DNA of 64,000 bases from positions 25,567,233 to 25,631,232 of the forward strand of contig OZ316892.1 in NCBI GenBank assembly GCA_973895155.1, read 5' to 3'. This DNA comes from Marsupella aquatica. Taxonomy: Eukaryota; Plantae; Marchantiophyta. The notes under the pieces were generated by a model. It searched no databases. It saw only the letters and a list, made by a program, of their open reading frames with translations, and was not told the DNA's origin. Each line of letters begins with the position of its first letter. Within the stretch, counting starts at the first letter, position 1. Shown piece by piece: positions 5,852 through 43,297 of the stretch. The position numbers were made by a program, and so were the translations under genes.

Positions 5852-8800
5852 CTATTTGAATTTGTAACCCAAGTATTCAACCGAGCTCGTTCCCAAACAA
5901 GGACCTCTTCCATACTGGTAACTCTCAACTCGAGGAGGTTTGATTCGCAGTGCCCATTCTGCATCTGCTCTGGCTCCTTCCTCATCCTGTAATAAGGACT
6001 TCACCAGGCCCCTGTGTTTTAGCCTTTCATAGTCATCTGTTTCTAGCTCTAGCGCTTCATTCAAATCTACCAACGCCCTGTTTAAGTCGCCTATCATCCT
6101 TCTCAGAACTCCCCTTTCCTGCAAGCCATACGGTCTGGCGCCTCCTAATTCAATGTACTCATTGGCATCCGTGAGGGCTCCTTCAAAATCTCCCAGCTTT
6201 GCCTTCACGAAGCATCTTGCGCTGCCATCAAATAGAAGAATTTGAGTGCCTTAAAAGCGAAGACGGATCTCAAAGCCCTGGAGCTCCTTGACTCTCATTC
6301 TCCAAATTGAAGATATTAAAACTCACACCTGAAGATTAAAATCTCACAACAAATCTTAACAATTTGTGGGAATATGGATACTCAAAGTTATCATGGCTCG
6401 CTCGCTCGCTCACTCTCATTCTCTGAATTAAACATATTGTAAGTTACACCTAAAAAATTGAAATCTCATCACGAACCTTAACAATTTGTGGGAAAACGTC
6501 ATGATCCAATTAGATGTTTGAATCTGCATGCCCATTGGACCTTCAATCTAAATTTAGGATCAAGCTGAGAAGTTGTACCTTACAAGCCTACCAACCATAT
6601 CAATGGCCAGAGCATTGTCGTAGGCTTTGAGTGCTCCCTTGTAGTCTCCCATACTTACTAGTGCGTCGCCTTTGCCTTCATAAGCAGCACTGGATAGGTA
6701 CAGTCTCTCCTCCTCATTTTCATTAACTGCCAATTCATAAACTTGTGCACTCCAATATTGTAATCCGCAATCCTGATGCTTATGGTTACAAGTAAGAATT
6801 CTCAAGCTCTTCAAAGAAGGTGGGGCATCCAAAAGGGCCCTCCTAAGATAACTCTTATTTTCAACTACTGCATAACAAATGTACGTTAGTGCCTGGGTTG
6901 CATTCTTTGGTACAGCAGGGCTCACTCCCTCTCCTAGCAGTTCAACAAGCCTCCCCACTGCACCTGGATAAGATCCAATCCTGATTGCATTCACCACCAC
7001 ATCTTTGGAAAAACATGCTAAAGCCCAAGATGCTTGTTGTTGTACATCTGGGCTCACACCCTCTTCTAAAAGTCCAACAAGTCTGTCCACTGCACCTGGG
7101 TAACATCCAATCTTGGTTGCATTTACCACCACATCATAGGAAAGACATCCTAGAGCCCAAGCTGCACTTCTTTGTACATCTCGGCTCACTCCCTCTTCTA
7201 GGAGTCCAACAAGCCTGTCCACTGCACCTGGGTAACATCCAATCTTGGTTGCATTTACCACCACGTCTTTGGAAAGACATCCTAAAGCCCAAGCTGCATT
7301 CTCTTGTACAAGTGGGCTCACTCCCTCTTCTAGGAGTCCAACAAGCCTGTCCACTGCACCTGGGTAACATCCAATCTTGGTTGCATTTACCACCACATCT
7401 TGGGAAAGACATCCTAGAGCCCAAGCTGCTTGCTTTTGTACATGTGGGCTCACTCCCTCTTCTAGGAGTCCAACAAGCCTGTCCACTGCACCTGGGTAAC
7501 ATCCAATCTTGGTTGCATTTACCACCACGTCTTTGGAAAGACATCCTAAAGCCCAAGCTGCTTGCTGTTGTACAAGTGGGCTCACTCCCTCTTCTAGGAG
7601 TCCAACAAGCATGTCCACTGCACCTGGGTAACATCCAATCTTGGTTGCATTTACCACCACGTCTTTGGAAAGACATCCTAAAGCCCAAGCTGCATTCTCT
7701 TGTACAAGTGGGCTCACTCCCTCTTCTAGGAGTCCAACAAGCCTGTCCACTGCACCTGGGTAACATCCAATCTTGGTTGCATTTACCACCACGTCTTTGG
7801 AAAGACATCCTAAAGCCCAAGCTGCTTGCTTTTGTACATGTGGGCTCACTCCCTCTTCTAGGAGTCCAACAAGCCTGTCCACTGCACCTGGGTAACATCC
7901 AATCTTGGTTGCATTTACCACCACATCTTGGGAAAGACATCCTAGAGCCCAAGCTGCTTGCTTTTGTACAAGTGGGCTCACTCCCTCTTCTAGGAGTCCA
8001 ACAAGCCTGTCCACTGCACCTGGGTAACATCCAATCTTGGTTGCATTTACCACCACGTCTTTGGAAAGACATCCTAAAGCCCAAGCTGCTTGCTGTTGTA
8101 CAAGTGGGCTCACTCCCTCTTCTAGGAGTCCAACAAGCCTGTCCACTGCACCTGGGTAACATCCAATCTTGGTTGCATTTACCACCACGTCTTTGGAAAG
8201 ACATCCTAAAGCCCAAGCTGCTTGCTGTTGTACAAGTGGGCTCACTCCCTCTTCTAGGAGTCCAACAAGCCTGTCCACTGCACCTGGGTAACATCCAATC
8301 TTGGTTGCATTTACCACCACGTCTTTGGAAAGACATCCTAAAGCCCAAGCTGCATTCTCTTGTACAAGTGGGCTCACTCCCTCTTCTAGGAGTCCAACAA
8401 GCCTGTCCACTGCACCTGGGTAACATCCAATCTTGGTTGCATTTACCACCACATCATAGGAAAGACATCCTAAAGCCCAAGCTGCATGCTTTTGTACATG
8501 TGGGCTCACTCCCTCTTCTAGGAGTCCAACAAGCCTGTCCACTGCACCTGGGTAACATCCAATCTTGGTTGCATTTACCACCACATCTTGGGAAAGACAT
8601 CCTAGAGCCCAAGCTGCTTGCTTTTGTACAAGTGGGCTCACTCCCTCTTCTAGGAGTCCAACAAGCCTGTCCACTGCACCTGGGTAACATCCAATCTTGG
8701 TTGCATTTACCACCACGTCTTTGGAAAGACATCCTAAAGCCCAAGCTGCTTGCTGTTGTACAAGTGGGCTCACTCCCTCTTCTAGGAGTCCAACAAGCCT

Positions 8801-11800
8801 GTCCACTGCACCTGGGTAACATCCAATCTTGGTTGCATTTACCACCACGTCTTTGGAAAGACATCCTAAAGCCCAAGCTGCATTCTCTTGTACAAGTGGG
8901 CTCACTCCCTCTTCTAGGAGTCCAACAAGCCTGTCCACTGCACCTGGGTAACATCCAATCTTGGTTGCATTTACCACCACATCTTGGGAAAGACATCCTA
9001 AAGCCCAAGCTGCTTCCTCTTGTACAAGTGGGCTCACTCCCTCTTCTAGGAGTCCAACAAGCCTGTCCACTGCACCTGGGTAACATCCAATCTTGGTTGC
9101 ATTTACCACCACATCTTGGGAAAGACATCCTAAAGCCCAAGCTGCTTCCTTTTGTACATGTGGGCTCACTCCCTCTTCTAGGAGTCCAACAAGCCTGTCC
9201 ACTGCACCTGGGTAACATCCAATCTTGGTTGCATTTACCACCACATCATAGGAAAGACATCCTAAAGCCCAAGCTGCATGCTTTTGTACATGTTGGCTCA
9301 CTCCCTCTTCTAGGAGTCCAACAAGCCTGTCCACTGCACCTGGGTAACATCCAATCTTGGTTGCATTTACCACCACATCTTTGGAAAGACATCCTAAAGC
9401 CCGAGCTGCTTGCTCTTGTACAAGTGGGCTCACTCCCTCTTCTAGGAGTCCAACAAGCCTGTCCACTGCACCTGGGTAACATCCAATCTTGGTTGCATTT
9501 ACCACCACATCATAGGAAAGACATCCTAGAGCCCAAGCTGCACTTCTTTGTACATCTCGGCTCACTCCCTCTTCTAGGAGTCCAACAAGCCTGTCCACTG
9601 CACCTGGGTAACATCCAATCTTGGTTGCATTTACCACCACATCTTTGGAAAGACATCCTAAAGCCCGAGCTGCATGCTTTTGTACAAGTGGGCTCACTCC
9701 CTCTTCTAGGAGTCCAACAAGCCTGTCCACTGCACCTGGGTAACATCCAATCTTGGTTGCATTTACCACCACGTCATAGGAAAGACATCCTAAAGCCCAA
9801 GCTGCATTCTCTTGTACAAGTGGGCTCACTCCCTCTTCTAGGAGTCCAACAAGCTTTTCCATTGCACCCAGATAAGATCCAATCTTGGTTGCATTCTCCA
9901 AATCGTTGGACATATTTCCTATTGCCCAAGCTGCACTATTTTGTGCACTATTTTGTGCTTGTGGGCAGGGCCCCTCCCCTAACAATCCGACCAGCTTCTC
10001 CACGGCACCTGGATGTGAGACAATCTTGGTTGCATTTTTGCCCGTTTTCTGTGAAAGATATCCTAATGTCAAGGAAGTGTTTAATTGTATATCTTGGCCA
10101 ACTCCCTCTGCCAAGAGTTCAATCAGTCTCTCAACTGCACCTGAATGAGATCCAATCTTGATTGCATCTCCTACATTGTGAGAAGATAAGCCTTGGAAGA
10201 GATAAAGAACTTCTCTGAGTTGAGGTTGAAAGTCGGAATTTGTTTGGTGGAGAACAGCCATCAACGCAGGAAGGATCTCGTCTTTGCTTTCCTTGAAGAG
10301 AGGCCTTTGGTTTATGAGTGTGAATTGTAGCAAGGCTTGGCATGCACCTGAGATTGTTTCTTGCATACATAGTAAGTCAATAACCTTTTTCTCGTGCAAC
10401 TCACCCAAAAGTAGATATTCTTCAAGAATCTACACATCGCAACGGACTAGGTAAGTTAGTACAGTAGGTCTAGTACAGTCTGACTGTCTTACAGTGAATA
10501 CGCATAGCTGAACAACTTATTCCCCTCCTCTTTTGAGTGTGTGTAACTCAAAGTTGAGGCGAAAGATTCACAGCCATTGAATGTCATATTTGTTGATCCA
10601 AACCTCAAATACTGTATATGCAATTTGAGCTTATAATATATAGACTGGAATCATCCACTCATATATTTTAATGATGATAGTACACAGCTGGCCTCTAAAC
10701 AATCCAAAATTCTAAAATTCTCATTATCGTACGGGTTGAGATTCTAAAGGATTACCTCTTTGGTCGCCTGATGTGATTTCTTTTGCCACTCCTCTTCACC
10801 ATCTGCATTTAGTAGCCAGACGAATGTTCTGATTGAAGACAATGTTGAGATGCCAAGCTTGTCGGTATCATTCACAAATTGATTTACCGGAATCCCAAGG
10901 GTGCTTGCTGCTTTGTTACGCCATGACTCTTGCCCGTACAGAACTAGCAATATAGCAGCAACATTATCTTTTGTAATGTACTCCATCAACTTGGAAAACA
11001 TCAAGGCAATTTCCTCCTTCTTTATCTGACTTATAAAATTTTGTCGCATGGTATGCAAGGACCAACTCCTTTGAGGGTTATCACTTCTTAGATCTGTTGG
11101 GCTCTCTATCTGGAAGAAGTTGATGGTCTCCATGTGCTCACAGCACCTAGAGAATTTAGCCATGCTGGAGTGTATAATCTTGAACAACGTCTTGAAGACT
11201 ACTTCAGGAACAGGCTCGCTTTCAAACACAGATGCTAAGAGTAAAAGAGTTTGCTCTTCACTTGAGAAAGAACTCAACGCCATTTCTATTGATGCTCCCA
11301 TGCTGCGTTTCGAGTAAGTACGACCAAACAGAGTAACAGGTCTTTGGTCATCCCCATTCTGTAGGTCCGAAAGATATCTAACAGTAGATTCCCATTCCTG
11401 TAGTTGTGAAGCTTTTCCAACGCCTATGTTTGTTGCTACATTAGCCAACACCAAAGGGTTGGAAGCAGATTTGTCAATAATCTGATTGATTTGGGCCTGG
11501 CACAGTCAGTAAATATTAATTAGACGTATATGTATAATTGTCAGTAGCGACAATTTCTAGTCTTAGTTCACAGAACCATTTGCTCTCAAAAAATGCCAAT
11601 CCTCAGAAAATACCAGTGAACACTATTGTACGTGAACAAAATGCAGGACTAGGTTCAAACAACTATTACCTGTATATCCGAAGTCACTTCTGGTGGAAAG
11701 CCTTTAACATGGTTTGCAAGAATTTGGTTCGCCTGTTGGGAAGTCGGTAGAGAAATCGTAATTTCAGCACAAATGGCATCAGTCCACAGTCCTGGACGCT

Positions 11801-12770
11801 GAGTAGTGATTAGGTATTTAATCCCTTGCTGTTGCACCAAAAGCCTGTCTACTATCATGGAATCCCACACATCATCGAGTATAATCAGCACCGTTTGATT
11901 TGCTAGTCGAGCTGAAAGTTGCTTGTGCATAGCATCCTCAGATTGCAAAGCGAAAGGCATCTCAACAGCTGAGCTCGCTTCACCTTGGCCAGCTGACGTA
12001 GGAAGAGCTTGGTATCCCAAATCTTGCCACAATTGCAGGAGTAGGCTCTTACAGTCCGCCTTCATACCGCAACGTAAGAAAAATACACCGTCCACAAACC
12101 GTTTGGAAGCAGGGGCGATCTGAGTACCCTGACTTTGCCCTTGGCCGCCTTGAGTTGTGTCTAGGGGATCTACGCCTTCTTGGTAGAGACAAGCCAAGTG
12201 TCTCGCCATGCTGGATTTGCCTTGGCCGGGTCCTCCAGCAACTACCACAATGGGGCCAGTGTTTTCACGTTCCAGAGCCATTCGAACTGCCGTGATGGAT
12301 GCCTCAAATGGCACATATTTCCTATCGGGTACGAATGGCAGACGAGCGACTCGACAGAGAGAGGCCTTTTCAAGTTGCTGTGTTCGTTCTGCTTGCTGAG
12401 CAATCGTTCGTGATAGGGACTCAAAGGCTGTAATAACACTATCCAAAGCTCCAGTTAATGATTCCGGATACAACAGTCTTCTCCCGACCGTACAGCAAGA
12501 ATTTTGTTGTCGCTTCTGTAGCTTAAGTTGTTCCTTGTCTAGGAGCTGAATCGCCAACTCCAGCACGCGCCCAATATATGGGTCGGTGCTCATTCCATAT
12601 CTGTTTAGAAGGGATGTCCAACTGTCTGATTGCTGCTCTAGAACAGCCAATCGTAATGGAAATAACTTCATAGCTTCGGATGTTTTGTACCAATCCAAAG
12701 CAGTCTGTTGGGCAAAGGCAGTAGCCTTAGTGATCAAAGTCACCAACGCATTTGCCTCGGCAACAGCCAT
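5852..12770 (-). CDS. NLR-like STAND protein: helical (RPW8/CC-like) N-terminus - NB-ARC - ARM repeat array - TPR; ~2020 aa, 4 coding exons (12770-11670, 11496-10756, 10429-6579, 6221-5852)
   Basis: Four collinear minus-strand ORFs join in frame at GT-AG sites (phases 0, 0, 2; 6063 nt total). P-loop GGPGQGKS, RNBS-A-like FVDGVFFL, Walker B LIILDDVW, RNBS-B KYLITTQR, GLPL-like IIDKSASNPLVLA just after intron 1, MHD-like WSLHT. 44-aa ARM repeats (..GAVDRLVGLL..VQxxAAWALGCLS). TPR-like helices (KGDALVSMGDYKGALKAYDNAL; AKLGDFEGALTDA; ERGVLRRMIGDLNRALVDLNEALEL). Confidence 0.88.
6985..9900 (-). repeat. Coding tandem array of 132-bp units (44-aa ARM repeats): 21 near-identical copies plus degenerate flanking units
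   Basis: The marker GCATTTACCACC recurs every 132 bp from 7119 to 9759 (21 copies). The protein shows VVVNATKIGCYPGAVD(R/M)LVGLLEEGVS 21 times. Confidence 0.97.
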
Positions 12771-14328
12771 GATAACTTGCGGAATTATCACCTGGCTACT
12801 TGCTTGTTGCTAGCTAATTTGGCACGAGGTAGGACCAGAAGAGGTAGCCACAGGGCCATGCCGACCTGAATAGAGAGCACGAACAGCCTGTCACTGGAAG
12901 CCATCACACCATCTTTCCAAGGACTAGCCAGCTGATTGAAATCTCAAATTCAGCAGACAATACCTATGGAATGCGCTTGCCAACAGATACCGACAGCAAA
13001 ACACGCCAGCAATCAGAACGAACCACGCCCAAGGAGACCATGATTAATCCTCATACTCTGCCTCTGTGTAGCGTTTCTTTCTACATATCTCCACAAGCCT
13101 CGTAACACGTACTCAGGTTGCGGATGTTATAGCCATCTTAGCCTGTGTGATGCAGCAACTGTCATGATCTTGATCTCACTGATTCTCTAGAGTTGGATCA
13201 AGATCTTACAGTATCGTTCTCTCGCAGCCAGTATATCCGAAGCCTGCTGTAAACGTCGGTAGCTGTTGACCGTCGAGTTCAGTCCTTCGTCCCGGAGACA
13301 AGACAAATTGCAGAGTTCCGAGATAAACCTGACCTATAGACGAGCCAATTGTTATCAAGTCCCAAATTTAGTGAATGGTGAAGAAAACAGGAACGAATGG
13401 CAGATTACCCAAACTAAAACGAGTCGCGGCGAAATCAAAGGATGTCTTCCTGAGGGACACACGCGGCATCTTGCTCCCACTGATAATATTGCATCATATG
13501 GGAGCGGTTGGTCTCGAGCATAGCGCAGGGGATATACAATCCCCCAAACACTAAGATCTTTGCATAGAGTCCACACATCCAACGCCAGAAAGCGGAGAGG
13601 GCATAGTGCTATTTAGCTAGCTAGCAGAAAAGCAGGTGACAAGAACCAAGGTGCTGAACTAATGGCTTACCTCACCTCGTTTGCAGAAGAACAACCATAG
13701 CTGGTGGTTGATTTAAAAGCAATGCCCGTATACGCTCATGAGTCGAAGGCTCGTATTGGGGCCTCCCATGGAAGAAGGGCCTCCCGTCACATTTGTAGCT
13801 AACTACGGCCAATTTCCCTCGCCTTCGACCCTGCGCGCTGAGCCGTGGACTGTAAACCTGGCAGCTTGATCAGAGAAATGTACACCAACTTCGATCACAA
13901 TAACATGTACCACATCAAAGACATCGAAAATTGAAGTGATCGCAGAATTAACTTCCTTTCAAATTCCATGGCCTGGGACGAAGCTAAGCTGTAGTGAGCA
14001 GACCTGACAGCTTTCCTAGAGAGACGACTTCATCGACCAGAGAAAACGTACCACATCAGATTAGACACCGACAACTGAACTGCCCATTTCGACACCTCCA
14101 CAGATCCTTACTAGACAGTGCGCTCTTCAGATTGCGTGTGTGACTTCATTTGAGATATCCATCATTCGTGAGCTCAGAGTCTACCGATTGGAGAGATGAT
14201 GTATCTTGAGAATTCCCACCACAACTGAGTTTGGGTCGACTCGCAACCTCGCTAGACAGATTCAACTATACACTGCCTGGAACACTGCCGTGTAGATGCA
14301 AGTCATCTCTCGTCCCAGATAAGGGAAA

Positions 14329-14706
14329 CACGGCTTTGGCCATGCGAGTCCGTAATGGGTCTTTCCGGGAAGTGCATTCCGAAGGGCTCAGTTTCAACAC
14401 CAGAGATTCTCCAGCTTAGTATATTATTATTTAAGCGGATATGAGAAGCAAAAAGAGGGACCACGCGGTATAGTGGTCGGTGATCCAATGCGCCATTACA
14501 ATTACACTCATTGGAACCACGGCTTTGGGCATGCGAGTCCGTAATGGGTCTTTCCGGGAAGGGCATTCCGAAGGGCTCAGTTTCAACACCAGAGATCTCC
14601 AGCTCACTATATTATTATTTAAGCGGATATGAGAAGGAAAAAGAGGGACCACGCGGTATAGTGGTCGGTGATCTAATGCGCCATTACAATTACACACATT
14701 GGAACC
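14329..14706. repeat. Direct tandem duplication, ~189-bp unit x2
   Basis: cacggctttgg(c/g)catgcgagtccgtaatggg...cattggaacca appears at ~14329 and ~14518 with few substitutions. Confidence 0.9.
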
Positions 14707-15214
14707 AAACTTGTAAGTGGTGACATTTCGTAAGAACTAGCGTAATAGTTCATGCCCGTGCGTTCGGTGCCATCGGATCAACACCTGCCAAGGCGTCCCC
14801 ACATACTACCTCCACTTAAAGTAGATTGGATTTCAAGGCCAACATCACCAGATAGTGTCCTAATAACCCGTCCTATTTTATATCCAGTACTCATACTCAC
14901 TGACTAGGGATGCTCAGACTGACCTGGTATGGCTGATGAAAGTAGTGGTTTCAGTCAATCGTGGTAGTCCGATGAATTCCATCGGAGCATCAACTCCACG
15001 TCAACTCACGAGACAAAACAGTTTTTGTGGTGCTTCCTCTCTCTTCCCCCCCGCCCCCCTAGGCCTCCCAAGTTTCTCCACGCTGATGCTGGAAGCATAC
15101 TTCCGATACTAGACTTAAGCGATCACCCCATCACCTCCAGTACACACCTCTAGCTTAGCCAGAATCCAGCATGAAATGGGCGCGCGGCAGCTCGTACGCC
15201 TTGGGCGTGGAGAG

Positions 15215-20602: not shown

Positions 20603-21750
20603 GCGCCTCACAATGCCCTGTTAGTAAACATTACCTTACTATTGTATATACATAGAAACCACTAAATTAATATATACACGAGGAATAAATTGCATGACAC
20701 GCATGAATGGACACGTAGATATGCGATCCCAAAGAAGGGCAAGAGAACAGACACCAAAGGATCGCCGCTGTGGGTGTTTGATCTCGTAGAATTTGTTGTC
20801 TCGTTTTGCTTGAGGTCCGAATAACAAGTAACGTAAGAAGAGTTTCAGTGGAGCCCCGCAGCAAGTATTGCGCAATAACGTAGATCATGGTTCACATTTG
20901 ACGGTATTTCCGAGAGTGAGAACGAATCTCCTCTATCCGCCAGCCCAAACATGTGATTTACAATATAATACACAAGCTTGAGAGATCGAAGCCACAGATC
21001 GAGAATGGAGCGTGGCAACCTCCGTCACCGCCACTACTGCCGGAATAGATCAATGTACCGTTGAAACACAAGAGAGAGAAACTGAGCGCGTCGAATTTGC
21101 AGCTGGTTAAGGGAGATCAGATTGGGAAATAGAAATGGGGAGATGCACAGCGTTAAGACTGCCTGCCTAGGAGAAGAACCAAAAGAAAAATGGAAGAATG
21201 TCGATCGGCGCTATTACCTTTGCAGAGATCGGGATCACGATGATATTGCTTTTCACGCCTTGATTCAAGCTATAGATTGATCCATGTGGACACGTTTCTG
21301 CCAGCAGCGTTACGTAGCGAGCTGCAGGAACGCAAATGAAGGGAGCACTGTCGATCCCTGGTGGTGGTAAAGGGCGTGGATCATTTCGATGTCGACCTGA
21401 CTAACTGCAGCTTTGACAATTCGGAACAAGTACCGGTACTGGATCATCTAGTCAGAGCTTGCCTGCCAGTTTTAAAATTAACCGAAAACGACGTATTTGA
21501 GAGGTCGTTCAGAAGGATTGGACAGGTTCACAAATATTTCCGATTCCCAAATATCATCACTCTCATCCTCTCAAGTTATGATCTGAGTACACTATACTGC
21601 CTCGTCGATTTCTTCGCCAGGGTGCATCTGCAGCAGTACGACATTGGATCTATTACTACAAATAGCAGCCTGGCTAGAACTCGGAATCGTTCGTGCGTTT
21701 CGTTTTCTTCCGTGATTAATGTGCCTACATGAATTAGCTACTTAGTCAAA

Positions 21751-23187
21751 ATGTCTACTCCTGTAGGCTACACTACTCCCACTTCTACCGTTAAAACCGT
21801 ATCTAGAGCCTATACTGTAGTTGTTGTGGTATTTGTGGTTGTCTCCCTTATTAGTTGCGTTGTCCTATGGATCTACATGGCGATAAAGAAGCCCAAGTCG
21901 AACTTCTGGACGTGCTTAGGCTGCTGCCGGATCTGCGTCGGACCGTCACGTATTTCAATGAAGGAGGATCCTTCTGCCCTGGGTGCGGCAGAGAGCACGC
22001 GGAAATCCGATCGTAGAAATTCCTCCCAGAATCCAGAAGTGAGTAAGGCGTTCACATATTGGGAGCTCGTCGAGGCGACCAACGGATTCAGTCCATCAAA
22101 CATTCTCGGGGAAGGCGGTTTTGGTCGGGTGTACAAGGGTACCATAGCTGGGAACCTCGTGGCAGTGAAGCAGCTCAAACGTGGAAGTAGGCAAGGTGAA
22201 AGGGAATTTCGCGCAGAGGTAGAGATCATCAGCAGAGTACACCATCGGCATTTAGTGTCGTTGGTGGGTTACTGTATTTCAGACAGTCACAGGCTTTTAG
22301 TTTACAATTATGTCCCGAATGGCACGCTGCAAGAAGGTCTTCATGGGCCGGGAAAACCTGTCATGGATTGGGCCACCAGAATGAACATTGCTCTGGGAAC
22401 AGCTCGGGGATTAGCTTACTTGCACGAAGACTGCAACCCGAGAATCATACACCGTGATATCAAGGGTTCCAACATTCTACTTGACTTTCAGTCGGGTTTT
22501 CAGTGCGAAGCTAAGGTGGCCGATTTCGGTCTGGCCAAGCTGGCCGACGAGGCTCAAACTCATATGACTACCCGGGTCGTGGGAACCTTTGGGTACATGG
22601 CTCCCGAGTACGCAATGAGTGGTAAGCTCACAGACAAGTCAGATGTGTATTCGTTCGGCGTGGTTCTTCTCGAGCTCATTACGGGTATGAAGGCGGTCGA
22701 TCGGACTCTCCCTGGAGCTGAGTCTCAGCAGAGTCTGGTAGAGTGGGCCAGACCACGTTTGACTGAGGCTTTGGAGACTGGAAATGTGGATGCCCTTGCC
22801 GATCCACATCTGAGGCAAGACTACGAGGAGAAGGAGATGTTCAGAATGGTAGAAGTCGCGGCTATGTGTGTTCGCCGTTCATCACATAGGAGACCCAAAA
22901 TGGCGGACGCGTTGCGCAGCCTTTCAACTGAACATGGAGATCTACATCAAGGAGTTCTGCCCGGTTACAGCAACGACTTGACCGAGGGAGAAGCGGCTGG
23001 GCAGCAGCTGAGTATCTTTCAACGAATGATTAATAGCAGCTCGACCAGTGAGTCCAGTAGTGACAACGGTGGCGACAGGAGGAATGATGCGCGGGCTCCA
23101 TCTCCTTCCACCAATGACTTGGGATCTACCATCGGGGTGTACCCTGATCCATTTCTCATACTTGGTTCCGGGGATGAAATGGTCTGA
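21751..23187 (+). CDS. PERK-family-like membrane-anchored Ser/Thr receptor-like kinase, single exon, 478 aa
   Basis: Hydrophobic TM at aa ~21-45. [64 protein letters not shown] (PERK-type), [32 protein letters not shown]-like tail [10 protein letters not shown]. Confidence 0.92.
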
Positions 23188-26100: not shown

Positions 26101-27286
26101 TTGTCTCCTCTTGCCCATTGTAATTAACTTCCCTAATTTTGCTCTGGCTTAGACTTCAGAGGACTCTCCAATCTTTATAAATTGAGTGTTTTGAAATCGT
26201 GGAGAAATGGATGAAAAGTACATTCTGGGCGAGAGTTTCGCCCACATCAACATTCAGATGTGAGGGAAACTAATCAAAATTTACCGCGTGCCACTTCATT
26301 CTTCATGGTTACGTATGAGATGGAATTTGATTGGCATTCATTCATACCTGTAACATTCAAGATTCGGTTGAGACCCAGCCATGCAAGTTGTCCTAAGCTT
26401 GATAAGAAATTAAGAGCAGCAGCGTCATCACGCACCAGCTGTGCTTCGCAATTGCAGCATAATTGTGTTCACGAAAGGAAGTCATAGGACAAATCATACG
26501 CAGCATCGCCATGCTTAAGCTGTGCTTAGCAACTGCAACACAAGCATATTCGCAAAATGTAAATTATCGGAGATTTGAGGCTGTGTGCAATCGTGGCAGA
26601 CATTTATGAAAGGTTGTAAGTAATTCAAAGAATTGAAGAACAGAATTCCTTTAAGAATACTGAGCGAGTCTACTCTGTGCTCTTGCAGGAGCATCAAGCC
26701 TGCTGTAGCCATTCCACCGTCAGCCTCGTGTATGAGTGAGGGAGTCCACAAGAGGACCGTCTTGGAAGTTCATGAAGCCTGTGCTCTGACGTCGATCATG
26801 CTGACCGAAGCAGACATCATTGCCACTACGCCCCAAAGGTCATTCGCACATCAGTTGTCTGTCGCCTTCCCATTCGTTCCTTCGATTTGATTTCTTTACA
26901 GCTTTGCTTTGACCTACTCTACTCATTTCGTCCCATTTTGAGCAGCCCCTGGGTGTAACTTTTTCTCCGGATTTGCGGCTGTCATTTCGTGAAGTCAGTG
27001 TACTCTGGCCTTCGTGGGCCCACACAATCGTTCAAGATGGTCATGGAGATCACCACGAGTCAGCGTCTGAGAGGGAATATATAGGTCCTGGAGATGTCTT
27101 CTCTGGCACCAGCGCAACCTGCCGAGAGATCGTTTCAGCTGATTGACTGATTATGGAGATTGTTTTCAAGCCAAGCGACTAGTGATGGAGATCACATTCC
27201 ATCGACAGAATTGTAGTTAGTGAGAGATCATCTCACATCCATTGCCAATAAGTTGTTGCTGCGCCATCTGACCATCTTTGTTGTTG

Positions 27287-29281
27287 ATGGCCAGAGCGAG
27301 CGCTCCAGCGATGGAGAAGGCCCGCTTCATCTGGCCGCTACACTTGTCTATCTTTGGTATTGTGATTGCAGCAAAATGTGTTCTTACGGACATGACCATC
27401 GTGACCTGTCCACCAGTGTGTCCTGGTCAGGACGGGAGCAGTAGCATTGGGACAGCCAGCGAGATCTTCACGGAGAGTGACGATTCCCACAACCTCTATG
27501 GCGCCGCTGGCACGCGCAAATGCACTTCCACAGAGCATTTAGAACCGGACAGTACTGAGGGAGTGAGCGAAATTTTGGGCAAGCTCAATAACAATGCAGG
27601 CGGCGGTGTTGGCAGACAGTCTCTCAAGATAAGGGCGTCGCGCCGGGACTTCCACACCCCCAATGGTTTCGTGTGTCCGGGTCAGACATATGACGCAAAA
27701 TTGGCCAAGGGTCAAACCGACTATCTCAATTCCATCGATTCCTCGACTCATTCTGTCACCCTGCTTCTGCATCGAATGAACTCCATTGTGGAAGTGGATC
27801 ACGCGCGCCATCGATTGACAGTCGAGGCAGGCATGACTCTGCAGAACCTCGCGGACGCAGCCCTGAAGAACGGGATGTCGATTCCTGTGGGAGTCCTCCC
27901 CGTCTATGGCAACCTCACAGTAGGCGGGGTGCTCGCCACATCGGCCCATGGAACTGGGGCAGGCGTGGACAGCTCGCTGGGAGACATCGTCACCATGGTC
28001 AAGTGGGTGAACGGGCAGGGAAAGATCACCACGAGCGATATCGCCGATGAGAAGGGGCGCTTAGAAATTCGGGGTCTGCTTGGGGGAATCGGATTGTTGG
28101 GGGTCCTGTGCGAGGTGACTTTCCGATTGCTGCCTGCGGGAGCGTTGGCCCAGGTGGAGATTTGGACCAAGGAAGACTCGACCATTGCCGCCGATGTCAA
28201 GCACCAATTGCAAGCACAGACCCCTCACATCCTCTACTTCTGGAGACCTGATTTGGGCTACTACCGAGCTCTTTTCTACAAACCTCTCGAATCCGGCGAT
28301 GTGCCGGTGCATCCCTACTATCCTCGGGGAAAGGCGGCCATGATGTTGCCGCCCCCCGAAAGCGTTGCGCAACAGTATTGGGAAAACTTGGCTGTCTTCC
28401 AAGCAGATATTGACGATTCCGGTCCGGGTGCAGACTTGCTCAATGCAGCGATTTGTGAAATGTCGGAAGGATTGAAGTACCTTCCCATATTTGTGGATGG
28501 GGAGGGCGCAATTGTTTCAAACGCTACCATTCCAGCCTCGTACGCGATGATTTCAGGGGAGTGCGAGCCGACTTGCCTGTGGAGTAGACAGTACTTTGGG
28601 GCCACCACGGAGGACAGCGAGTGGGCGATCAGGCTCAGCGATCTGGATGAGTGGATAAAGGATGTGAAGGCGGTCGTCAAGGGGGAGGAAGAGGAGAGAC
28701 AGAAGCAGCTGGACAGGCGGTATGGGAAAGGCAAAGTCCGAGCCTGTATGACGCCAGGATTCTTCTGGATTCGATTTGGGAAGCCCAACGACAATCTGCT
28801 GGCTGTCAGCACGGGTATGGATGAGCCTGTGGTGTACGCCATGATGTTGTTTTATACATCGGTTCTGGTTCCCAATGCTCCTCCGAAGCACGATCACATC
28901 ACGCAGGTCATCGAGCAGCTGAGTGTCTGCAAGTATGGAGCCAGAGCGCATTATGGTAAGAACTTTGATCGCCAGTTTACGAATGAGCACTGTCCATTGC
29001 TTGACAATTTCCCGAAGCAAAATCTCTTGGAGATGAGGAAGCTGCAAGACGAGCATGATCCTTTCAGGGTGTTCGAGTCTGAGCTGTTGGGTCGAATGCT
29101 CGAGAATCGTGGTCCCGACTATGAAGACAAGTGTTCTCTGACGCACAAATGCTACTGTAAAGAGGACTCCCATTGTGCCGACGGATTCAAGTGTCAGCCA
29201 TCGGTGGTTTTCCCTGAATACAAAGTCTGTAAAGTGCAGTTTTCATACGAAGAGACCGAACTAGCGAAAGATGAACTGTGA
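27287..29281 (+). CDS. L-gulonolactone oxidase-like (GULLO/aldonolactone oxidoreductase family) FAD protein, single exon, C-terminal KDEL
   Basis: Signal-peptide-like hydrophobic N-terminus. FAD_binding_4-type motifs (TVEAGMTL, LTVGGVLATSAHGTG, GGIGLLGVLCEVT). ALO-type ARAHYGKN..HDPFRVF. Plant GULLO Cys-rich tail (CYCKEDSHC..FKC..VCK). Start may instead be the ATG at 27311. Confidence 0.85.
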   Translation: MARASAPAMEKARFIWPLHLSIFGIVIAAKCVLTDMTIVTCPPVCPGQDGSSSIGTASEIFTESDDSHNLYGAAGTRKCTSTEHLEPDSTEGVSEILGKLNNNAGGGVGRQSLKIRASRRDFHTPNGFVCPGQTYDAKLAKGQTDYLNSIDSSTHSVTLLLHRMNSIVEVDHARHRLTVEAGMTLQNLADAALKNGMSIPVGVLPVYGNLTVGGVLATSAHGTGAGVDSSLGDIVTMVKWVNGQGKITTSDIADEKGRLEIRGLLGGIGLLGVLCEVTFRLLPAGALAQVEIWTKEDSTIAADVKHQLQAQTPHILYFWRPDLGYYRALFYKPLESGDVPVHPYYPRGKAAMMLPPPESVAQQYWENLAVFQADIDDSGPGADLLNAAICEMSEGLKYLPIFVDGEGAIVSNATIPASYAMISGECEPTCLWSRQYFGATTEDSEWAIRLSDLDEWIKDVKAVVKGEEEERQKQLDRRYGKGKVRACMTPGFFWIRFGKPNDNLLAVSTGMDEPVVYAMMLFYTSVLVPNAPPKHDHITQVIEQLSVCKYGARAHYGKNFDRQFTNEHCPLLDNFPKQNLLEMRKLQDEHDPFRVFESELLGRMLENRGPDYEDKCSLTHKCYCKEDSHCADGFKCQPSVVFPEYKVCKVQFSYEETELAKDEL

Positions 29282-32105: not shown

Positions 32106-33404
32106 CTGTACAAAAAAAACTGTCACTGGTTTTCTCCTCTGGCAAACAATCGATTGTAGTCTTATGCTTTACCAGTCTCATGGTTCATTTTCTTTTTGTC
32201 CTTTGAAACCTAAAGCTGACCTATCCAAGGATAAACAATCAACTTCGGAGAGCATGCACCTCTGGTAGCCCACAAGGGTCATACCGAGAACCATGGTTCA
32301 TTTTTGGTTCACCCTGAACTCTAATTCTTGGCGTTCTAGAAGGTAGTGAATAGTAGTGAGATGTTTCACGAGCATCAATGTGAAATGATTGCTCACTCCA
32401 TTGACTGTGAGACAATCGAACTCCCCACAATTATCTCAATCAAGAACAAATTGCTATCGGCTACCCAAGCAAGCAAAAAAGTTGAAAGAGCAAAATCAAC
32501 TCAAGAAGTCGATTGTAACGAGAAAGCTTCAAGCGAGTTAGCGCATCTATTGCATCCGAAGTCCAATTCACACACTCCTCCACTGAACTTGAGTCGCTGG
32601 GAAAATCTAGCTCGACTGTTAGTGCCCATTACAGTGCACAGGTTTTCACACCACTATGAACGAGCAACCCTGTCGTTCACTTTCAGCGGATTGCAGACTT
32701 CTCGTGCATCGCAGACTCGGCCGAAATACAGGCTCGTCGCCCTGTAGGTGCCCAGGGTGTACCTCAACACGCACTGAATCTGGTATTCTGTTGAAAATCG
32801 TACCAGACAAGCTCCTTGATCACAAACTTTACAGAAGCGGTCTTGCTGTTCGAGGAGGGAAATTCGGAATCTGGGGCGAAGCTGAGATGTGCTGACCACG
32901 TAGAGTAATTTTGGTTCTGGGTAAATTAAAGAACCCTGGTGCAACGAGATTCAAACTTTGACAAACAGACATGATTCGTGAACTGCCATGAAATCGATTG
33001 GTTGCTGTATCTTCTAGGGCCTCACTTTGATCTTAGCTACCTTATCCAAAGTGAACACTAAAAGAACCCGAATGAGTTGGTTGGCTCACCGGAATCTTAT
33101 CCAATCACAGACAATTCAAACTGTGTTGACATAATATGCGTTGTGTAAGCACATATATTATCAACACCATAGGCTCGTGCAGAATAATGGATACGTGTTG
33201 TGCAAGTAAGGGAATGGATACTTAAAAACAATATAACGAAGGGAATTGTGTGCCCTTAGTGCGGTTCTGATTATTCGTAAACACCCTACAAAGCAAATTT
33301 GACAGCCCACAGACTACTCAGTTTCAAATCGTTAGCTTTTATCAAACCCTACCAAATTTCTTTGCTTCCCCATCTGATTTCTGCAGAGCGAATTGGCGAG
33401 AAGA

Positions 33405-35166
33405 ATGAACATAGTGTGTGGCGGTGCCGGCGCGTTAGTGGCAGATAGATCGATGAGATTGCTGCAACTAGGTACTTCTACTTCGTTGCAGTTGAATCAG
33501 ATGGTACCAGCAGTCAGTTGCCGTCAGCCTTGGAGTCGTCCAAGTGCACGAGCATCAGCTATGGAGTATGAAGCACAATTAATCACTCTGCCGGTGGATG
33601 ATCAGGTGCCCATTGTGGATTTGGCGGAGCTCAGATGTGGTAGCCTTGACCACTCGACACACCGAGTTGCCGCAGCTTGCCGAGACTGGGGTTTCTTCCA
33701 GGTTTGTCATTCCCATCGTCTGTCCATCCCTCTCAAATTTGCTGTGGAAGCATTGCCCGGGCCCGTCTTCTGTGACCTTTAGCCTTTTCCTACAAGGTGA
33801 AATTAGGGGGACAGAAAATCGAGGGCTTTTCTGAATGTAGACTCTCTCTGGAAGATTGATCGCTAATCCTCTGTTTCGATCTTTTGAGAAAGAAAATGGA
33901 CGGGTATGTTTGGCGGTTGAAGGTAAGGATGCTTTCCCCATGTGCCGCCTCCTCTCCTACCCTAGTCTATGGTTAGAGCTGTTTATTCGAGACACTGAAT
34001 GGGCAATTGCTTCTGATTTCTCTGAATCCTCAGGTTGTCAACCACGGAGTGTCCATGGAGTTTCTCCAGAGGCTCCGCAAGCAATGTTTCGATATGTTTT
34101 CTCTACCTCCGGAGCAAAAAGACAAGATTTCTAGAAGTAGGCAAGGTTCAGGATGGGGCTATGACTTCAGACCAGATCATGGGCCGATGGAGGTGTTACA
34201 ATTAAATCCCTGGGATACCCGCCAAGTCCTCACCTATGCCAACGAATTGTTCCCCAATTCCAGCGAAGATTTCATGTAATCCGCTCTCCCTCAGCTATCC
34301 TCAGTTATTTTGATAATTTCCCCTTTTAAGAAATTACGATGTTTCAATGGCAACACTAGAGCGCCTACGCTTCAAGCAATGCTTACTTTAATGGTCTGCG
34401 ATGACAGAGCTGTATGCGAAGAAGCAAACTTGATGTTTCGCACTCTGGCTATGGAGATTCTGGACCTCTTGATACAGGGTCTGGGAGTGGATGCAAAACA
34501 TTTTCAGGCGCACAAAATTGAGTCTCAGGGGGTCCTGCGTGCCAATTACTATCACCAGTCGAAAGCACCAGATCAAGTGCTTGGCCTAAAGCCACACGTC
34601 GATGGGAACCTCTTCACAATCTTACATCAACAGGATGTCACTGGTCTGGAAGTACTCAAGGATGGAAGATGGATTCCCATCACCCCACGAAGCGATGCGT
34701 TCTGCATCAACGTTGCTGATATCATGCAGGTGGGTTGGCTCACAGATGTCACTTCTGTGGGAATCCTGCATTTCTCATTCTCATTGATGCAATTCTCGTG
34801 GACCAGTCTCTACTACGGTCTGTAGAGTAGACAAATAACATTTCTACAGAATTTTCTAAAGTCCACTCTGTTACTCACAAACGCCGGCCAAGAAGTTGTG
34901 GCCTGCAGGTTCTCTCGAATGGCATATACAGGAGCGTCCAACACCGAGCAGTGGCACCCAAGACACAAGCTCGTCTGTCCCTCGCATACTTCTTCACCCC
35001 TGCAAACGGTGTCACTCTAATTCCGGCTCCAGAGCTAGTAGACGAGGTGCACCCACCTCTGTATCGACCATTCTCTTGGGCGGACTTTGTGGAGGCAGCC
35101 AAAGTTCCAGGCCGACCCTATCCAAGCGTTCTCCCTTTCTTTGAACAAGGGCACGCAGAATCATGA
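33405..35166 (+). CDS. 2-oxoglutarate/Fe(II)-dependent dioxygenase (DOXC class); exons ~33405-33701, 34034-34275, 34408-34729, 34909-35166
   Basis: VPIVDL..AACRDWGFFQ|VVNHGV; LRANYY; HxD (KPHVD); distal His (SVQHRAV); RxS (RLSLAYF). GT-AG junctions are phase-compatible. The start ATG is uncertain (33405, 33453, 33501 or 33561). Confidence 0.9.
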
Positions 35167-36888: not shown

Positions 36889-39800
36889 AAACCAGGGAAA
36901 CCCCCAAAAAAAACTGACTGAAGGAAGGAGGCAGAGAAAAAAGAAGCAATTAAGCGGGGCAAGGAGAAGGAGCACCCCCATAGAGAAATCCATGGGATCC
37001 ACCAGCCCATACTGCCAAAAAGAAGGGGCAGTAACAGTGGGAAGGTGGAACCCCCGAACAAGGGGGACCAACAGGAAAAACTACGCCGAGCGAACCCAAG
37101 CAACCAAATGCAGCCACCATGCACCAATAGCAGCCATCCAATCAGGAAACAGCCAGGAAAGAGACTGGGCAACAGGCATACTCCATTCTCCCCAGACTGC
37201 CACTCACCACCATCTCCATATGCCACCTGCCAACCAAGTCTCAGATCCCAATAAAATCCTTGTGCTCTCACCACCAACGCCATATGTCTCCTGCTGACCA
37301 AGTCTCAGATCCCAATAATCCCTTTGTGCTCCCCTAGTCGCTCTGACTTTTGTAGTCTTGAAAAATGGGCCATGAGAATATTATCTGATGTCCTCCTGCT
37401 CAGCCATAATGCACAGCCAGATGACAGAGAACAGATTCCCCCTTCGGATGCTGAAAAGGGACCAAAGAGGGTGTCCCTAATATGGATCCAATAACAAAGA
37501 GAATATCTTGACTCTCCCCACCACTTCCCGTCGAATAAGATTCAATTTGTCTCCAACCAAAAGGAAGCAGAGTTGAACGGTAGCAGCCATATGCTGTAAG
37601 ACAGTCAGAACCTGACGGAGATGATTGGAATGTTGCCAACCTATGGATACTCGAGTGTTATAGTGGAGGAGTACAAAAATGAGGGAATACACGGAGGCCA
37701 GAAAAGTTTTCTCCAAGGCAGGAATCCTGAGAATAATTGGGAGCAAATATCCATGCTGAGAGTGCCAGCATCCCCACCGACAGTCCGGAGCAGCAACCCC
37801 AATCCTTCCATTACATCCCTCTTATATTTGAGTAGGCCAGACCAGCGGAGAATGGAGAGAGCTTGGTACCCAGAATATAACCAGGACAAGAAACCAATCA
37901 AAAATGACTGCCATAGGAGCACGACAGAAAGCAGACCTTGGCGCGCAAGAGATCCAGACATATGTTATGATCCTATTCTTACCAAGAGAATATGCTAGAA
38001 ACCTGATGGCGGTGACACGAGATGAGCCAAAGGAACCAAAAGAGGATGGTTCCGGAATCTACAATCTATACACGATTCATAATATTCGTGAAATAAAACC
38101 TGGTCTCCAAATAAATGTGCGAGGAGAAAGAATCTATATCCATAGAGAGCAACTGTAGTATCAGTCAGAACGTGAAGAAGAACATCAGCTAGGTGGCGTA
38201 ACACAGATTGGAGAAAGAATCTTGTGCAGAAAAAGAGCCATCGATACCCATCCAATGCTGAGAGAAACAACCCAGCCCATTAGCCCATACTCAGATAATG
38301 GGCCACAATAAGGGATGCCGACCGTGAGATTTCACCGACCAGGGAGCTCCAAAAAACTGTTGAGAGCCCGGACCGCTCCTTCCTCGATCCAGAAGAGACC
38401 CAGACAGCCCCATCTCGGGGAGGAAATGGGTACGGTGAATCAGCTGAGAAGCGAGGAGACACTGACCCTGGCCAGGGGGAGAGAATGACTACATAGACAA
38501 GGTGTGCGGAACAAGAGAAAAGTGAACTAGGAGCGCAAAAATCTTGGTGGTATACCAACCATTGGTAAAAAAAACAACGGGAAAAAACCAGTGGGATATG
38601 GATACCATAATTTGACATAATCCTCGGTGGAATGAGGAACAAAAGTGATTCAGCGAGCAAAACGATATGATAATGGACGTGATAAAAATTTCTCTGCGTA
38701 GTATAACCTTTTTTTCTTTTTTTCTGAATCTGAACAGATTGCTACTGAACGAAGATGCACAACGGCTGCAGATGCTGCTGTAGAAGGATCGGAGAGAAAA
38801 CTATTGATTGGCTAAAATTGGCGGGAGTTACGATTTTTCCAGAGTAACCACAAAGTTTGATATATTACAAATAGACGAGCTGAGAGGCAAGGGGAACGAC
38901 CAAGAGCAAGGTCAAGAAAGGAGGTGAAGGAGTGACCACCCGGGAGGAGAGACACTGCAGAAGCCCGTTCGTAGAACCAAGCAGTCCGGTTCCAGGCCGT
39001 CGTGGCTTGAGTGCACGTAAAAAATATGTGCTTATTATCTTCTGGGTGGCCAATGCAAAGGGGGCATATTCCATCCCCATGACCACACTGGAATGCTCTC
39101 CGGCCGGTGAACAGTCCAGCAGCCAGGACCCGCCATATAAAACTTTTCCCACGATTTGACAAATCAGATCTCCATAAACGCCTCCATCTCCTTTGCCATG
39201 TGGAAGGGGAATCAGATGAGCCCCATCTGATGTTCAGCGAACGAGAGTCTGCGCCAGATTGGTCAATAAATTTATATGCCATAACGCTACTGAGAACCCG
39301 AGGGGAACGGTGATTTTTGAGTCCCTTCCAAAACCATTGACCTGGAACAAAGGAGGAAGAACCAGATGGTGGAGGACCATCCTGCAAAAGCTGAAGTATG
39401 TTGGTAAGAACAATGATATTCAATTCCCCTAGTCCACGTATCCTAGAAATCCTGGCCGAAAAATCAATCCAAGTTCCTAAATGACTGTTCCAAAGATCTA
39501 GTACACATTGAATATTTAATCGGGAGCAAGCAGAAGAAATGAGAGGAAGAGCAGAAGCTGGGAAACATTTAGAGCGAAAGTATATTTTGAGAAGGTCTTC
39601 TATTCGCCATCTAGCAGGAATGGCAAGAGAGGAAGAGCTCCAGAGCAAGTTTCCTCGAATCTGAATCCATGCTTTCCAAATTTCTTCGGTATATCTCATT
39701 CCACGAAAACTCGATGGGGATGAGAAAAGGAATCTGTCCATTGGAGTGTATCCTGATGATCGGAGGAGAACCGACTGTTTCCATGCAGCCAAACGAATGT

Positions 39801-41456
39801 TAGCAGAGAATAGCAATGACCAATCCGAAGAAGGATCAGTAATCATCCTAACCGACCATCTTGCGAGTAGGGCCGAGGCTTGTGTTTGGATATCTTTAAA
39901 TCCAAGACCTCCATCCTGTTTTCTGCAACACATTCGTTCCCAAGGCACAAGAGGTGTTTTTCTGCCACCGTCTTTATTATATCCCCAAAGGAAGTCTTTA
40001 CATGTCTGGCGAATCAAGTTAGAGAGGCTACCAGCTATACGTGTATACATCATATGGTAAACCGTCATTGACAACGAAACTTGTTTTATCAATAGAACAC
40101 GTCCAGTGAAGGACAAATTTTTGTTAGACCAGCTAGAGAGCAGACTCTTTAGTTTTTTCATACAAAAGTCTTGTACCTGTTGGTGGGAAATATCTTGTCC
40201 AAACGGAGCTCCAAGATAGCACGAAATCTGTCCTTGCGGGACAACAATTACATTTGAGTCTATTAGCCATTGCGGAATAGATTCTAGACAAAAAGTAAGG
40301 ACCTCAGTCTTTTCTAAGTTTAACTTTGCTCCCGCAGCCAACTCATAAATCTCCAACTTTTGTCTTATTTCAAGAAAACAGGATTCCATTGCAGGGGTGA
40401 ATACCCCGAGATGATCTGCAAAGAATCGATGGAAAAGAGTAAGATCGTTGTTTATCTTAATGCCTTGCACCTCGCCAGCCAAGAGCGCCGCATCAAAGAA
40501 GTCCATTAATGGCTGGGTGGACAATGCATAAACCAGTGGGGCAAGGGGACAGCCTTGTCGAACGCCACGCAATAAATGGATAGGCTGAGAGAATTGTCCG
40601 TTTACGTGTACCTTCGCTGTGGCATTGGTCATTAGACTCATTATTCTACTGATAAACATCGGACTCAATCCAGACGAAGCCAGAGACTCTCTTATGTATC
40701 TATGATCCACTCGGTCAAAGGCTTAGCAAAATCCATTTTCAGAAACATGCCGGGACATTGTTTGGTTTGAGCCAATCGCTAGCCAACCATGCGATAGATA
40801 TGTTGTCGAGAATCTGCCGTCCAGGGACAAACCCTGTTTGTTGATTATTTACCATCTGAGGAAGAAACCTAACGAGCCGGATAGCAATGAGCTTAGCGAT
40901 TATTTTATAGGAGATGTTTAGGAGAGTAATCGGTCTCCAGTTAGACAGTGACTTCTTGTCAGAGGATTTAGGAACAAGCTTAATAACCCCTTCCAAGAAT
41001 CGTGGTAACATTATACCGTCATTCCAGAAAGAAAGGAGCATAGCAAGAAAACCCGGAGCTATGAAGTCCCAACATCCCAAAAAAACCTCAATGGTAAGAC
41101 CGTCGAGACCGGGAACTTTATTTTTTTGAATTTGCTGTGCAGCACTGAAGAGTTCCACGCTAGTCGGAGCCGAGTCTAGGAAGTGAATGTCAGATTCAGA
41201 TAAGCGAGAGGAGGAGAAACTAAGGATACTCCTCCATGCTGCTATATTCAGCTCAGACTCCGGGGCGTCAGGGGAATACAAGGCACTATAGAATTTACCC
41301 ACCTCAGTGAGGATCAGATTTCTATCAGAAGTGGTCGAACCATCAGCTAGACGCACGATAGGGTTTTGTGCCCACGGGCCCTTTGCGGAATAAAGTTTCG
41401 GGGCTCATTCCCCCTCTTTAAAAATAAAATTTTAAATTTTAAATTTTTTTTAAAAA
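36889..41456. mobile_element. 5'-truncated L1-clade LINE, internally inverted, flanked by a 16-bp target-site duplication AGTTCTTGCACAATTA (36873-36888 and 41457-41472)
   Basis: Exact 16-bp direct repeats at both ends. RT and zf-RVT coding region on the minus strand. A plus-strand AATAAA (41389) and A/T-rich tail lie just before the right TSD. Confidence 0.82.
38812..41356 (-). pseudogene. LINE ORF2 fragment (reverse transcriptase + zf-RVT), inactive
   Basis: KVPGLDG, NWRPITLLNISYKIIAK, QTGFVPGRQILDNI, frameshift near 40725, RGVRQGCPLAP, catalytic motif FADD altered to FADH, YLGAP, CPLC..EDNKHIFFTC. The endonuclease domain is missing. Confidence 0.92.
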
Positions 41457-43025: not shown

Positions 43026-43297
43026 CTCTCCTCTCCTCTAGAAACTATGAAGAGAATCGATGCGTGTGGACCTCAAGTGAATTCGATTGACCTGGAAGAG
43101 TGCTCTGAAGAAGGTGAATTCTCTCCTCTCTTGTAGAAACTGTGAAGAGAATCGATGCGTGTGGACCTCAAGTGAATTCGATTGACCTGGAAGAGTGCTC
43201 TGAAGAAGGTGAATTTAGACATGGCGATGCGTGTGGACCTCAAGTGAATTCGATTGACCTGGAAGAGCGCTCTGAAGAAGGTGAATTTAGACATGGC
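43026..43297 (+). repeat. Triplicated 5'-UTR segment (core gatgcgtgtggacctcaagtgaattcgattgacctggaagag.gctctgaagaaggtgaatt x3)
   Basis: Core copies at ~43059, ~43155 and ~43227. Confidence 0.92.

Follow-up and report, generated by a model that had tools for sequence, protein, structure and literature searches.

A candidate liverwort immune receptor of the CC-NB-ARM-TPR type with a homogenised, groove-variable armadillo array

A 64,000-nt stretch of the genome of the liverwort Marsupella aquatica (contig OZ316892.1 of assembly GCA_973895155.1, positions 25,567,233 to 25,631,232; hereafter the window) carries on its minus strand a gene predicted to encode one protein in which a four-helix N-terminus, an NB-ARC module, 25 armadillo (ARM) repeats and four tetratricopeptide repeats (TPRs) follow one another in this order. 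The core of the ARM array consists of near-identical units whose shared differences all fall on helix 3, the helix that lines the predicted binding groove. The protein is probably a liverwort-type CC-NB-ARM(-TPR) receptor (CC, coiled coil) with mosaic, groove-variable repeats, likely acting as an intracellular sensor of non-self; recombination between repeats likely deals out its specificity anew. What was observed directly is the open gene model with its domain order, the family to which it belongs, the homogenised mosaic array and the restriction of amino-acid change to helix 3; the mechanism is proposed from the biology of nucleotide-binding leucine-rich repeat receptors (NLRs) and of ARM proteins.

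An ARM profile built from the family recovered 25 units, which agrees with the roughly 25 repeats counted in a first-pass annotation of the bare sequence. Tandem Repeats Finder describes the array by a period of 132 with 22.6 copies at 94%. Mean pairwise identity among the 21 core units (Table 1) is 95.6% at the nucleotide level and 93% at the amino-acid level over 924 aa; 15 distinct units are represented, and exact duplicates form groups of four, three and two. No clear higher-order period was found within this array. The four-gamete test is failed by 25 of 83 informative site pairs, which points to recombination or repeated mutation between units, and the core units are mutual mosaics. Each of the 14 polymorphic sites found in at least two units lies in codons 1–18 (helix 3), and the other 26 codons hold singletons only; two shared synonymous polymorphisms also lie in helix 3. 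Amino-acid variation is found at unit positions 2, 3, 6, 7, 10 and 17, plus one singleton at position 35, with four residues at position 6 and five at position 7 that were reached via multi-base changes. The exposed residues of helices 1 and 2 are invariant across units. The array had earlier been described as homogeneous, which is correct as far as it goes; the confinement of its variation to the groove, the more unusual feature, had been missed. Contigs of all four public DNA runs, aligned with one unit, contain head-to-tail 132-nt joints, so the tandem array exists outside this assembly; no contig of these runs spans it. Summed contig depth over the repeat was dropped as a measure of copy number.

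Aligning the unit sequence with ARM proteins of solved structure, namely importin alpha and designed armadillo proteins, served to map the variable positions. The tryptophan at unit position 10 aligns with what we take to be ARM position 33, and the variable sites therefore correspond to ARM positions 25, 26, 29, 30, 33 and 40, of which five (26, 29, 30, 33 and 40) lie on the predicted binding face. For a groove set that we assume to comprise positions 26, 29, 30, 33, 36, 37, 40 and 41, a minimal-step dN/dS, which is a crude count ignoring recombination, reached 3.0 (13 replacement vs. 7 silent steps, p = 0.014), compared with 0.18 outside the groove (p = 0.010). A pairwise pN/pS of 3.5 on the six variable codons was discarded as circular. 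In designed armadillo binders, positions 29, 30 and 33 form the specificity pocket according to the sections consulted of PMC11228518, and the ARM binding pocket is placed on helix 3 in those of PMC10684580. In each of five homologous arrays these eight groove positions vary more than the others (permutation p 5e-05 to 0.033, 35 positions), and within helix 3 alone this excess keeps p < 0.05 in four of the five; the test covered five of six homogenised arrays, the homolog P0077 being omitted as a near copy of P0002. Differences between the DNA-run contigs and the unit follow a similar distribution, with 36 of the 40 listed (63 in total) in codons 1–18 and 26 of the 40 in groove codons. Among them, Arg replaces Trp at position 33 by a second route, and positions 30, 36, 40 and 41 carry new residues not seen in the window. 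Coming from contigs that mix alleles and paralogues over a stretch centred on helix 3, these variants would count as support rather than proof.

The four exons join in frame into 6,063 nt, coding for 2,020 aa and ending in a single terminal stop, and the three GT-AG introns have a GC content of 35–37%. The model is an open, single reading frame whose splicing is predicted from DNA; the first-pass annotation had likewise proposed four exons and a product of about 2020 aa. Its proposed succession of NB-ARC, ARM and TPR, with no leucine-rich repeat (LRR), was equally sustained: Pfam searches on the exon frames identified NB-ARC in exon 1 (E 6e-06, above cut-off), Arm in exon 3 (E 3e-110) and TPR at the end of exon 3 and in exon 4 (E 5e-06, below cut-off), and none of the four exon frames matched an LRR family at E ≤ 0.1. 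All parts recur, in unchanged order, within single polypeptides of annotated homologs, and several unspliced homologous open reading frames (ORFs) lose alignment at the position where exon 1 ends. Indels in contigs of the four public DNA runs (12 listed of 18) lie mostly in introns, two of the 12 in intron 1 and eight in intron 2; of the remaining two, one is upstream of the gene and the other, on a diverged contig, falls in exon 3. The long ORFs across the array on the plus strand and in alternative frames were rejected as shadows of the repeat. At least one paralogue about 89% alike is represented by contigs in runs X1 and X2 over window positions 12371–12707 and 10321–10796 (38 differences in 337 nt), and a one-base deletion at 10398 (exon 3) occurs on one diverged contig.

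The AlphaFold2 model of exon 1, built with a 64-row alignment, has a mean pLDDT of 84.5 and consists of four long helices (aa 3–138; individually 3–23, 32–58, 64–89 and 103–138, pLDDT 73–93 per block) followed by a P-loop NTPase, in line with the helical N-terminus proposed at first pass. A single-sequence fold of exon 1 was set aside (pLDDT 36). The helical domain has no Pfam match, and fold searches with exon 1 were dominated by the nucleotide-binding domain. Its language-model look-alikes in the Atlas are SesA, MLKL_N, Rx_N and RPW8, at 0.76–0.81 (<0.9), and serve as leads only. Conserved residues of the domain are kept and its first helix is amphipathic. The NTPase part finds its best fold matches in plant NLRs and Apaf-1 (Z 16–18, rmsd 2.5–3.4). 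Its P-loop and Walker B are intact, and RNBS-B reads YLITTQ, GLPL reads SNPL and MHD reads LHT, departures that are family-wide. The RNBS-B arginine, the GLPL motif and the MHD motif in the canonical form of CNL, RNL and TNL proteins are thus absent. The earlier statement that all recognisable NB-ARC motifs are present consequently applies to their positions, and to the intact P-loop and Walker B, and fails for the canonical sequence of the other three.

Exon 1 was scanned against 1.84 billion protein representatives and gave 76 matches; among the 30 examined, all 24 named eukaryotic records are liverworts and one is an IMG WD40 protein. The named relatives derive from Calypogeia fissa, Marchantia paleacea, Riccia fluitans and R. 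sorocarpa, and M. polymorpha MpNBS-LRR15 falls in one of the clusters. Among annotated proteins, those of Calypogeia come closest (42% NB-ARC identity). A word-based search with exon 1 among longer proteins returned none of 7,192 candidates, and a profile search with the family alignment returned 21 matches, most of them proteins with ARM repeats only and none of the RLS1 type. In a quick maximum-likelihood tree of 38 NB-ARC rows, from which P0101, P0103, P0105 and RLS1 were left out, the gene groups first with three Calypogeia proteins (SH-aLRT 97) and then with M. paleacea Mapa_011269 and a Riccia protein (SH-aLRT 97), and the 32-row family stands apart from six outgroups (SH-aLRT 99). The exclusively liverwort affiliation of the 24 named eukaryotic relatives agrees with the initial view that the protein is NLR-like, comes from an early-diverging land plant and has an ARM solenoid where the sensor would be.

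Homogenised arrays, defined by windows of >70% adjacent-unit identity, occur in six of 28 long homologs and exceed 85% in two. Their units measure 43, 44 or 45–46 aa and have differing consensus sequences, and the NB-ARCs of P0103 and P0105 are only 23–24% identical to that of this gene, so homogenisation arose more than once. P0054 and P0082 (Riccia, 2,160 aa) combine equally long ARM arrays and the TPR cap with an adjacent identity of ~0.3; array length and homogeneity are therefore separate properties. In P0013 (Calypogeia), aa 1015–1401 show a three-unit higher-order period, three times over, as a sign of block duplication. A hydrolase-like domain replaces the helical N-terminus in six of the 28 long homologs, as expected of modular effector domains. 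An alpha/beta-hydrolase-like N-terminus is seen in P0013, P0101, P0103, P0057, P0060 and P0072, three of which carry ARM arrays and would read Hyd-NB-ARM(-TPR); the grouping of P0013 with this gene in the NB-ARC tree suggests that effectors have been exchanged.

The first-pass annotation had further proposed a distinct new class of immune receptor. This proposal finds no support: the gene belongs to a liverwort family including Calypogeia, Marchantia and Riccia, and Table S3 of PMC12512272 already lists six Marchantia (NBARC)(ARM)(TPR) proteins, so a family of largely the same architecture is on record. As far as that table was accessible, its CC-NB-ARM cluster comprises 62 rows from ferns, lycophytes, Marchantia and angiosperms, including rice RLS1; the (NBARC)(ARM)(TPR) rows are exclusively from Marchantia, with one orthologous-looking pair having a long ARM run. 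The TPR form is not discussed in the accessible text of PMC12512272. The cluster also contains one CC-NB-LRR row, and long-branch attraction is therefore possible. Homologs P0016, P0045, P0005 and P0078 match cluster rows by distinctive Pfam side hits, and we infer that they are those rows. The top Atlas match of family member P0018 is a 1,051-aa NB-ARC + Arm Streptophyta cluster (0.97), about the size of RLS1. The gene is likely a member of the already catalogued CC-NB-ARM(-TPR) family, and its monophyly with RLS1 would rest on the published cluster and on the P0018 match.

With the CC-NB-ARM clade (rice RLS1, LOC_Os02g10900; Marchantia Mp5g08960, Mp5g10840 and Mp5g21860), as described in the accessible parts of PMC12512272 and PMC10030324, the protein shares a helical N-terminus (here by prediction), a divergent NB-ARC, an ARM solenoid and the lack of an LRR. 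MpNBS-LRR15 (MARPO_0095s0062) has the same four parts, with 29% NB-ARC and 47% TPR identity. Rice RLS1 differs in its length of 1,040 aa and, in the table of PMC12512272, is annotated with three ARM motifs and lacks TPRs. The Marchantia and Riccia members with TPRs have divergent repeats (best adjacent identity 0.17–0.56), whereas here 21 units are near-identical and vary almost only in the groove. The closest parallel in organisation is offered by fungal NLRs of high internal conservation (HET-D/HET-E with WD40; Podospora proteins with ankyrin (ANK), TPR and HEAT repeats), which the accessible parts of PMC4986451 and PMC13449251 describe as having repeats >85% identical over >100 aa; the present array, at 93% over 924 aa, exceeds the >85% over at least 100 aa of PMC4986451. 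Shared with these proteins are a few hypervariable positions on the concave binding face (here by alignment to solved ARMs), signs of repeat shuffling and swappable N-terminal effector domains. The plant host, the ARM repeats, the plant-clade NB-ARC and the additional conserved TPR cap set the gene apart, and length polymorphism and allorecognition are features demonstrated for the fungal NLRs. NLRs of high internal conservation also occur in plants according to the accessible part of PMC13449251, whose survey comprised ANK, TPR, WD40 and LRR only, and these examples may bear on novelty.

Like TNP proteins (TIR-NB-ARC-TPR), the product is an LRR-less plant NB-ARC protein ending in TPRs; unlike them, it has an all-helical N-terminus without a TIR match in Pfam and an ARM array between NB-ARC and TPR, and TNP forms a separate cluster in section 11 of PMC12512272. 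Canonical plant NLRs (CNL, RNL, TNL) have a C-terminal LRR, which this protein lacks. Designed armadillo repeat proteins, as presented in the accessible part of PMC11228518, likewise combine identical scaffold repeats with specificity positions on helix 3, and designed armadillo proteins (4rzp, 4rv1, 5mfd) are, together with importin alpha, the best Protein Data Bank sequence matches of the array. However, the designed proteins are engineered, with 4–7 repeats of 42 aa and a conserved Asn, whereas the present array is natural, with 21 repeats of 44 aa and a Cys. NB-ARM proteins are noted for rice and Selaginella in the accessible parts of PMC8559963, PMC7145615 and PMC9825502. The term ARM is absent from the main text of preprint 10.1101/2022.10.19.512840, armadillo is not mentioned in PMC11906373, and five M. 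polymorpha gene identifiers were found neither in the main text of the papers searched nor in the readable supplement of PMC11906373. In the literature searched, with subscription papers outside its scope, no description was found of homogenised groove-variable ARM arrays in a plant NB-ARC protein, and the liverwort NB-ARM-TPR subfamily is essentially unstudied there. Apparently, a known domain order and a known principle of diversification meet here in an undescribed combination that recurs in liverworts.

In the receptor that we envisage, unequal crossing-over or gene conversion would keep the repeat scaffold identical while reshuffling groove variants. The NB-ARC switch would be released once a microbial or other non-self protein occupies the groove, and oligomerisation could then expose the four-helix domain and trigger cell death or a defence signal. 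Rice RLS1, a member of the same published cluster, provides a precedent, as it elicits hypersensitive-response-like death when activated (PMC10030324). The conserved TPR cap may stabilise the resting state or dock a chaperone or partner rather than serve as the variable sensor. More speculatively, and with small chances of being right as a whole, liverworts might have repeatedly evolved recombination-driven receptors built from interchangeable ARM units that differ in their residues at positions 26/29/30/33/40 and form long arrays; these would decode a ligand one register at a time and be wired to swappable four-helix or hydrolase effectors. Such receptors would be for immunity, in nature, what designed modular armadillo binders are in engineering, and would correspond, in plants and with ARM repeats, to the HET-E alleles of fungi.

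Several observations weigh against a variable sensor under selection. The ratio pN/pS is 0.94 over the whole unit and 1.06 over helix 3, and the 15:3 split of helix-3 changes is not above neutral, so the signal of selection depends on the chosen groove set and on the crude step count. Groove excess in P0013 is not significant within helix 3 alone (p = 0.07), the differences between the Calypogeia pair P0002 and P0077 are not concentrated on the groove, and surface residues vary more in any repeat protein. Of the 28 long homologs, 22 have no homogenised array, and ordinary divergent ARM arrays are the rule in most homologs. At ARM position 37 this array has Cys. Importin-type ARMs carry there an Asn that grips peptide backbones, and with Cys in its place a folded-protein surface is no less plausible as a ligand than an extended peptide; the Asn is kept in homologs P0103, P0105 and P0045. 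Finally, the sensor-I Arg and the MHD Asp are missing, so the NB-ARC switch may be non-canonical. The pN/pS ratios, together with the shared synonymous polymorphisms, the groups of duplicate units and the ordinary arrays of most homologs, would also fit an RLS1-like regulator or scaffold whose array was recently expanded by unequal crossing-over, with groove variation reflecting relaxed constraint instead of selected diversity. We regard this as unlikely. Relaxed constraint is at odds with invariant exposed residues on helices 1 and 2 next to codons 6 and 7 with their multi-base changes, with the same face being variable in arrays that have other consensus units and distant NB-ARCs, and with the groove dN/dS.

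The degenerate motifs bear on another alternative, which we consider quite improbable, namely a sensor unable to signal alone whose NB-ARC and helical domain dock on a helper NLR or partner that executes the response. LHT in place of MHD and TTQ at sensor I, both family-wide, would suit such dependence. So would two precedents in the accessible parts of the literature: activated rice RLS1 causes hypersensitive-response-like death with its partner RMC, which RLS1-D needs for rapid death (PMC10030324), and two Marchantia CC-like domains from another clade gave no death in N. benthamiana (PMC12512272, section 11). The intact P-loop and Walker B, the conserved residues of the N-terminal domain and its amphipathic first helix speak against it, and tblastn detected no further NB-ARC or paralogous sequence elsewhere in the window. 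There is very little to expect from the idea of an array that recognises nucleic acid or some other repetitive polymer, one unit per register as in PUF or TALE proteins, although the invariant scaffold, the few polar and aromatic variable residues at i, i + 1 and i + 4 of one helix and the replacement of the backbone-binding Asn would be compatible with it; the Protein Data Bank matches listed are all protein-binding ARMs, and the three homologs named above retain the Asn. Equally slight are the odds that the exons do not form one transcript or that the assembly inflated the array. The lack of a spanning contig and the absence of the TPR cap from the annotation of the three closest annotated homologs could be read in this way, but the same cap, 35–58% identical, occurs within one annotated protein in 15 of the 28 long homologs, exon 3 is open from the ARM array into TPR1, the 15 distinct units argue against simple collapse or duplication, and the tandem joints recur in four DNA runs.

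Table 1 Parts of the predicted receptor gene, in window coordinates
Feature	Position	Strand	Remarks
Exon 1	11670..12770	-	aa 1-367; N-terminal helical domain and P-loop half of NB-ARC
N-terminal four-helix domain	12357..12770	-	aa 1-138; CC/MLKL/HeLo-like by prediction
NB-ARC module	11011..12341	-	aa 144-529, spans intron 1; Pfam NB-ARC
P-loop GGPGQGKS	12213..12236	-	from sequence; intact
Walker B LIILDDVW	11865..11888	-	from sequence; intact
Intron 1	11497..11669	-	173 nt, GT-AG, phase 0
Exon 2	10756..11496	-	aa 368-614; ARC1/ARC2 region and start of family-conserved helical linker
MHD-equivalent LHT	11050..11058	-	Asp missing in most of the family
Intron 2	10430..10755	-	326 nt, GT-AG, phase 0
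Exon 3	6579..10429	-	aa 615-1898; complete ARM array in a single exon, and TPR1
ARM solenoid	6863..10174	-	25 units, aa 700-1803; family-built ARM profile
Core repeats	7055..9826	-	21 near-identical units, 132 nt / 44 aa; variable unit positions 2, 3, 6, 7, 10, 17
TPR cap, four units	5933..6697	-	aa 1859-1994, spans intron 3; read from sequence, Pfam TPR below cut-off
Intron 3	6222..6578	-	357 nt, GT-AG, phase 2
Exon 4	5852..6221	-	aa 1898-2020; TPR 2-4, family-conserved C-terminal tail, stop codon

Elsewhere in the window, a two-copy 188-nt tandem repeat (95% identical) lies at 14324–14707, 1.5 kb upstream of the gene. The plus strand carries a receptor-like kinase in a single ORF with an N-terminal membrane helix (21733–23187; Pfam Pkinase), an intron-free L-gulonolactone-oxidase-like FAD enzyme of 669 aa (27272–29281) and exons of a 2-oxoglutarate/Fe(II) dioxygenase (33378–34825). 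On the minus strand, 38812–41404 holds a LINE-type reverse transcriptase in two ORFs with zf-RVT. A further plus-strand ORF at 43248–43727, with a serine-rich start, a CxxCxGxG-type cysteine motif at its end and no Pfam match, presumably resembles plastid DnaJ-type zinc-finger proteins.

So far, CC-NB-ARM proteins have passed for a minor and conserved offshoot of the plant NLRs, and RLS1 is the sole studied member that we found. The liverwort branch is expanded, swaps effectors and has homogenised groove-variable arrays in several subclades, which argues for true variable sensors. It may represent a second, LRR-independent recognition scaffold for plant immunity, and the model species Marchantia polymorpha has members of the family. 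Because only six positions vary while the remainder of the unit is fixed, it should be unusually easy to relate repeat sequence to specificity, which may also be relevant to the design of modular binders.

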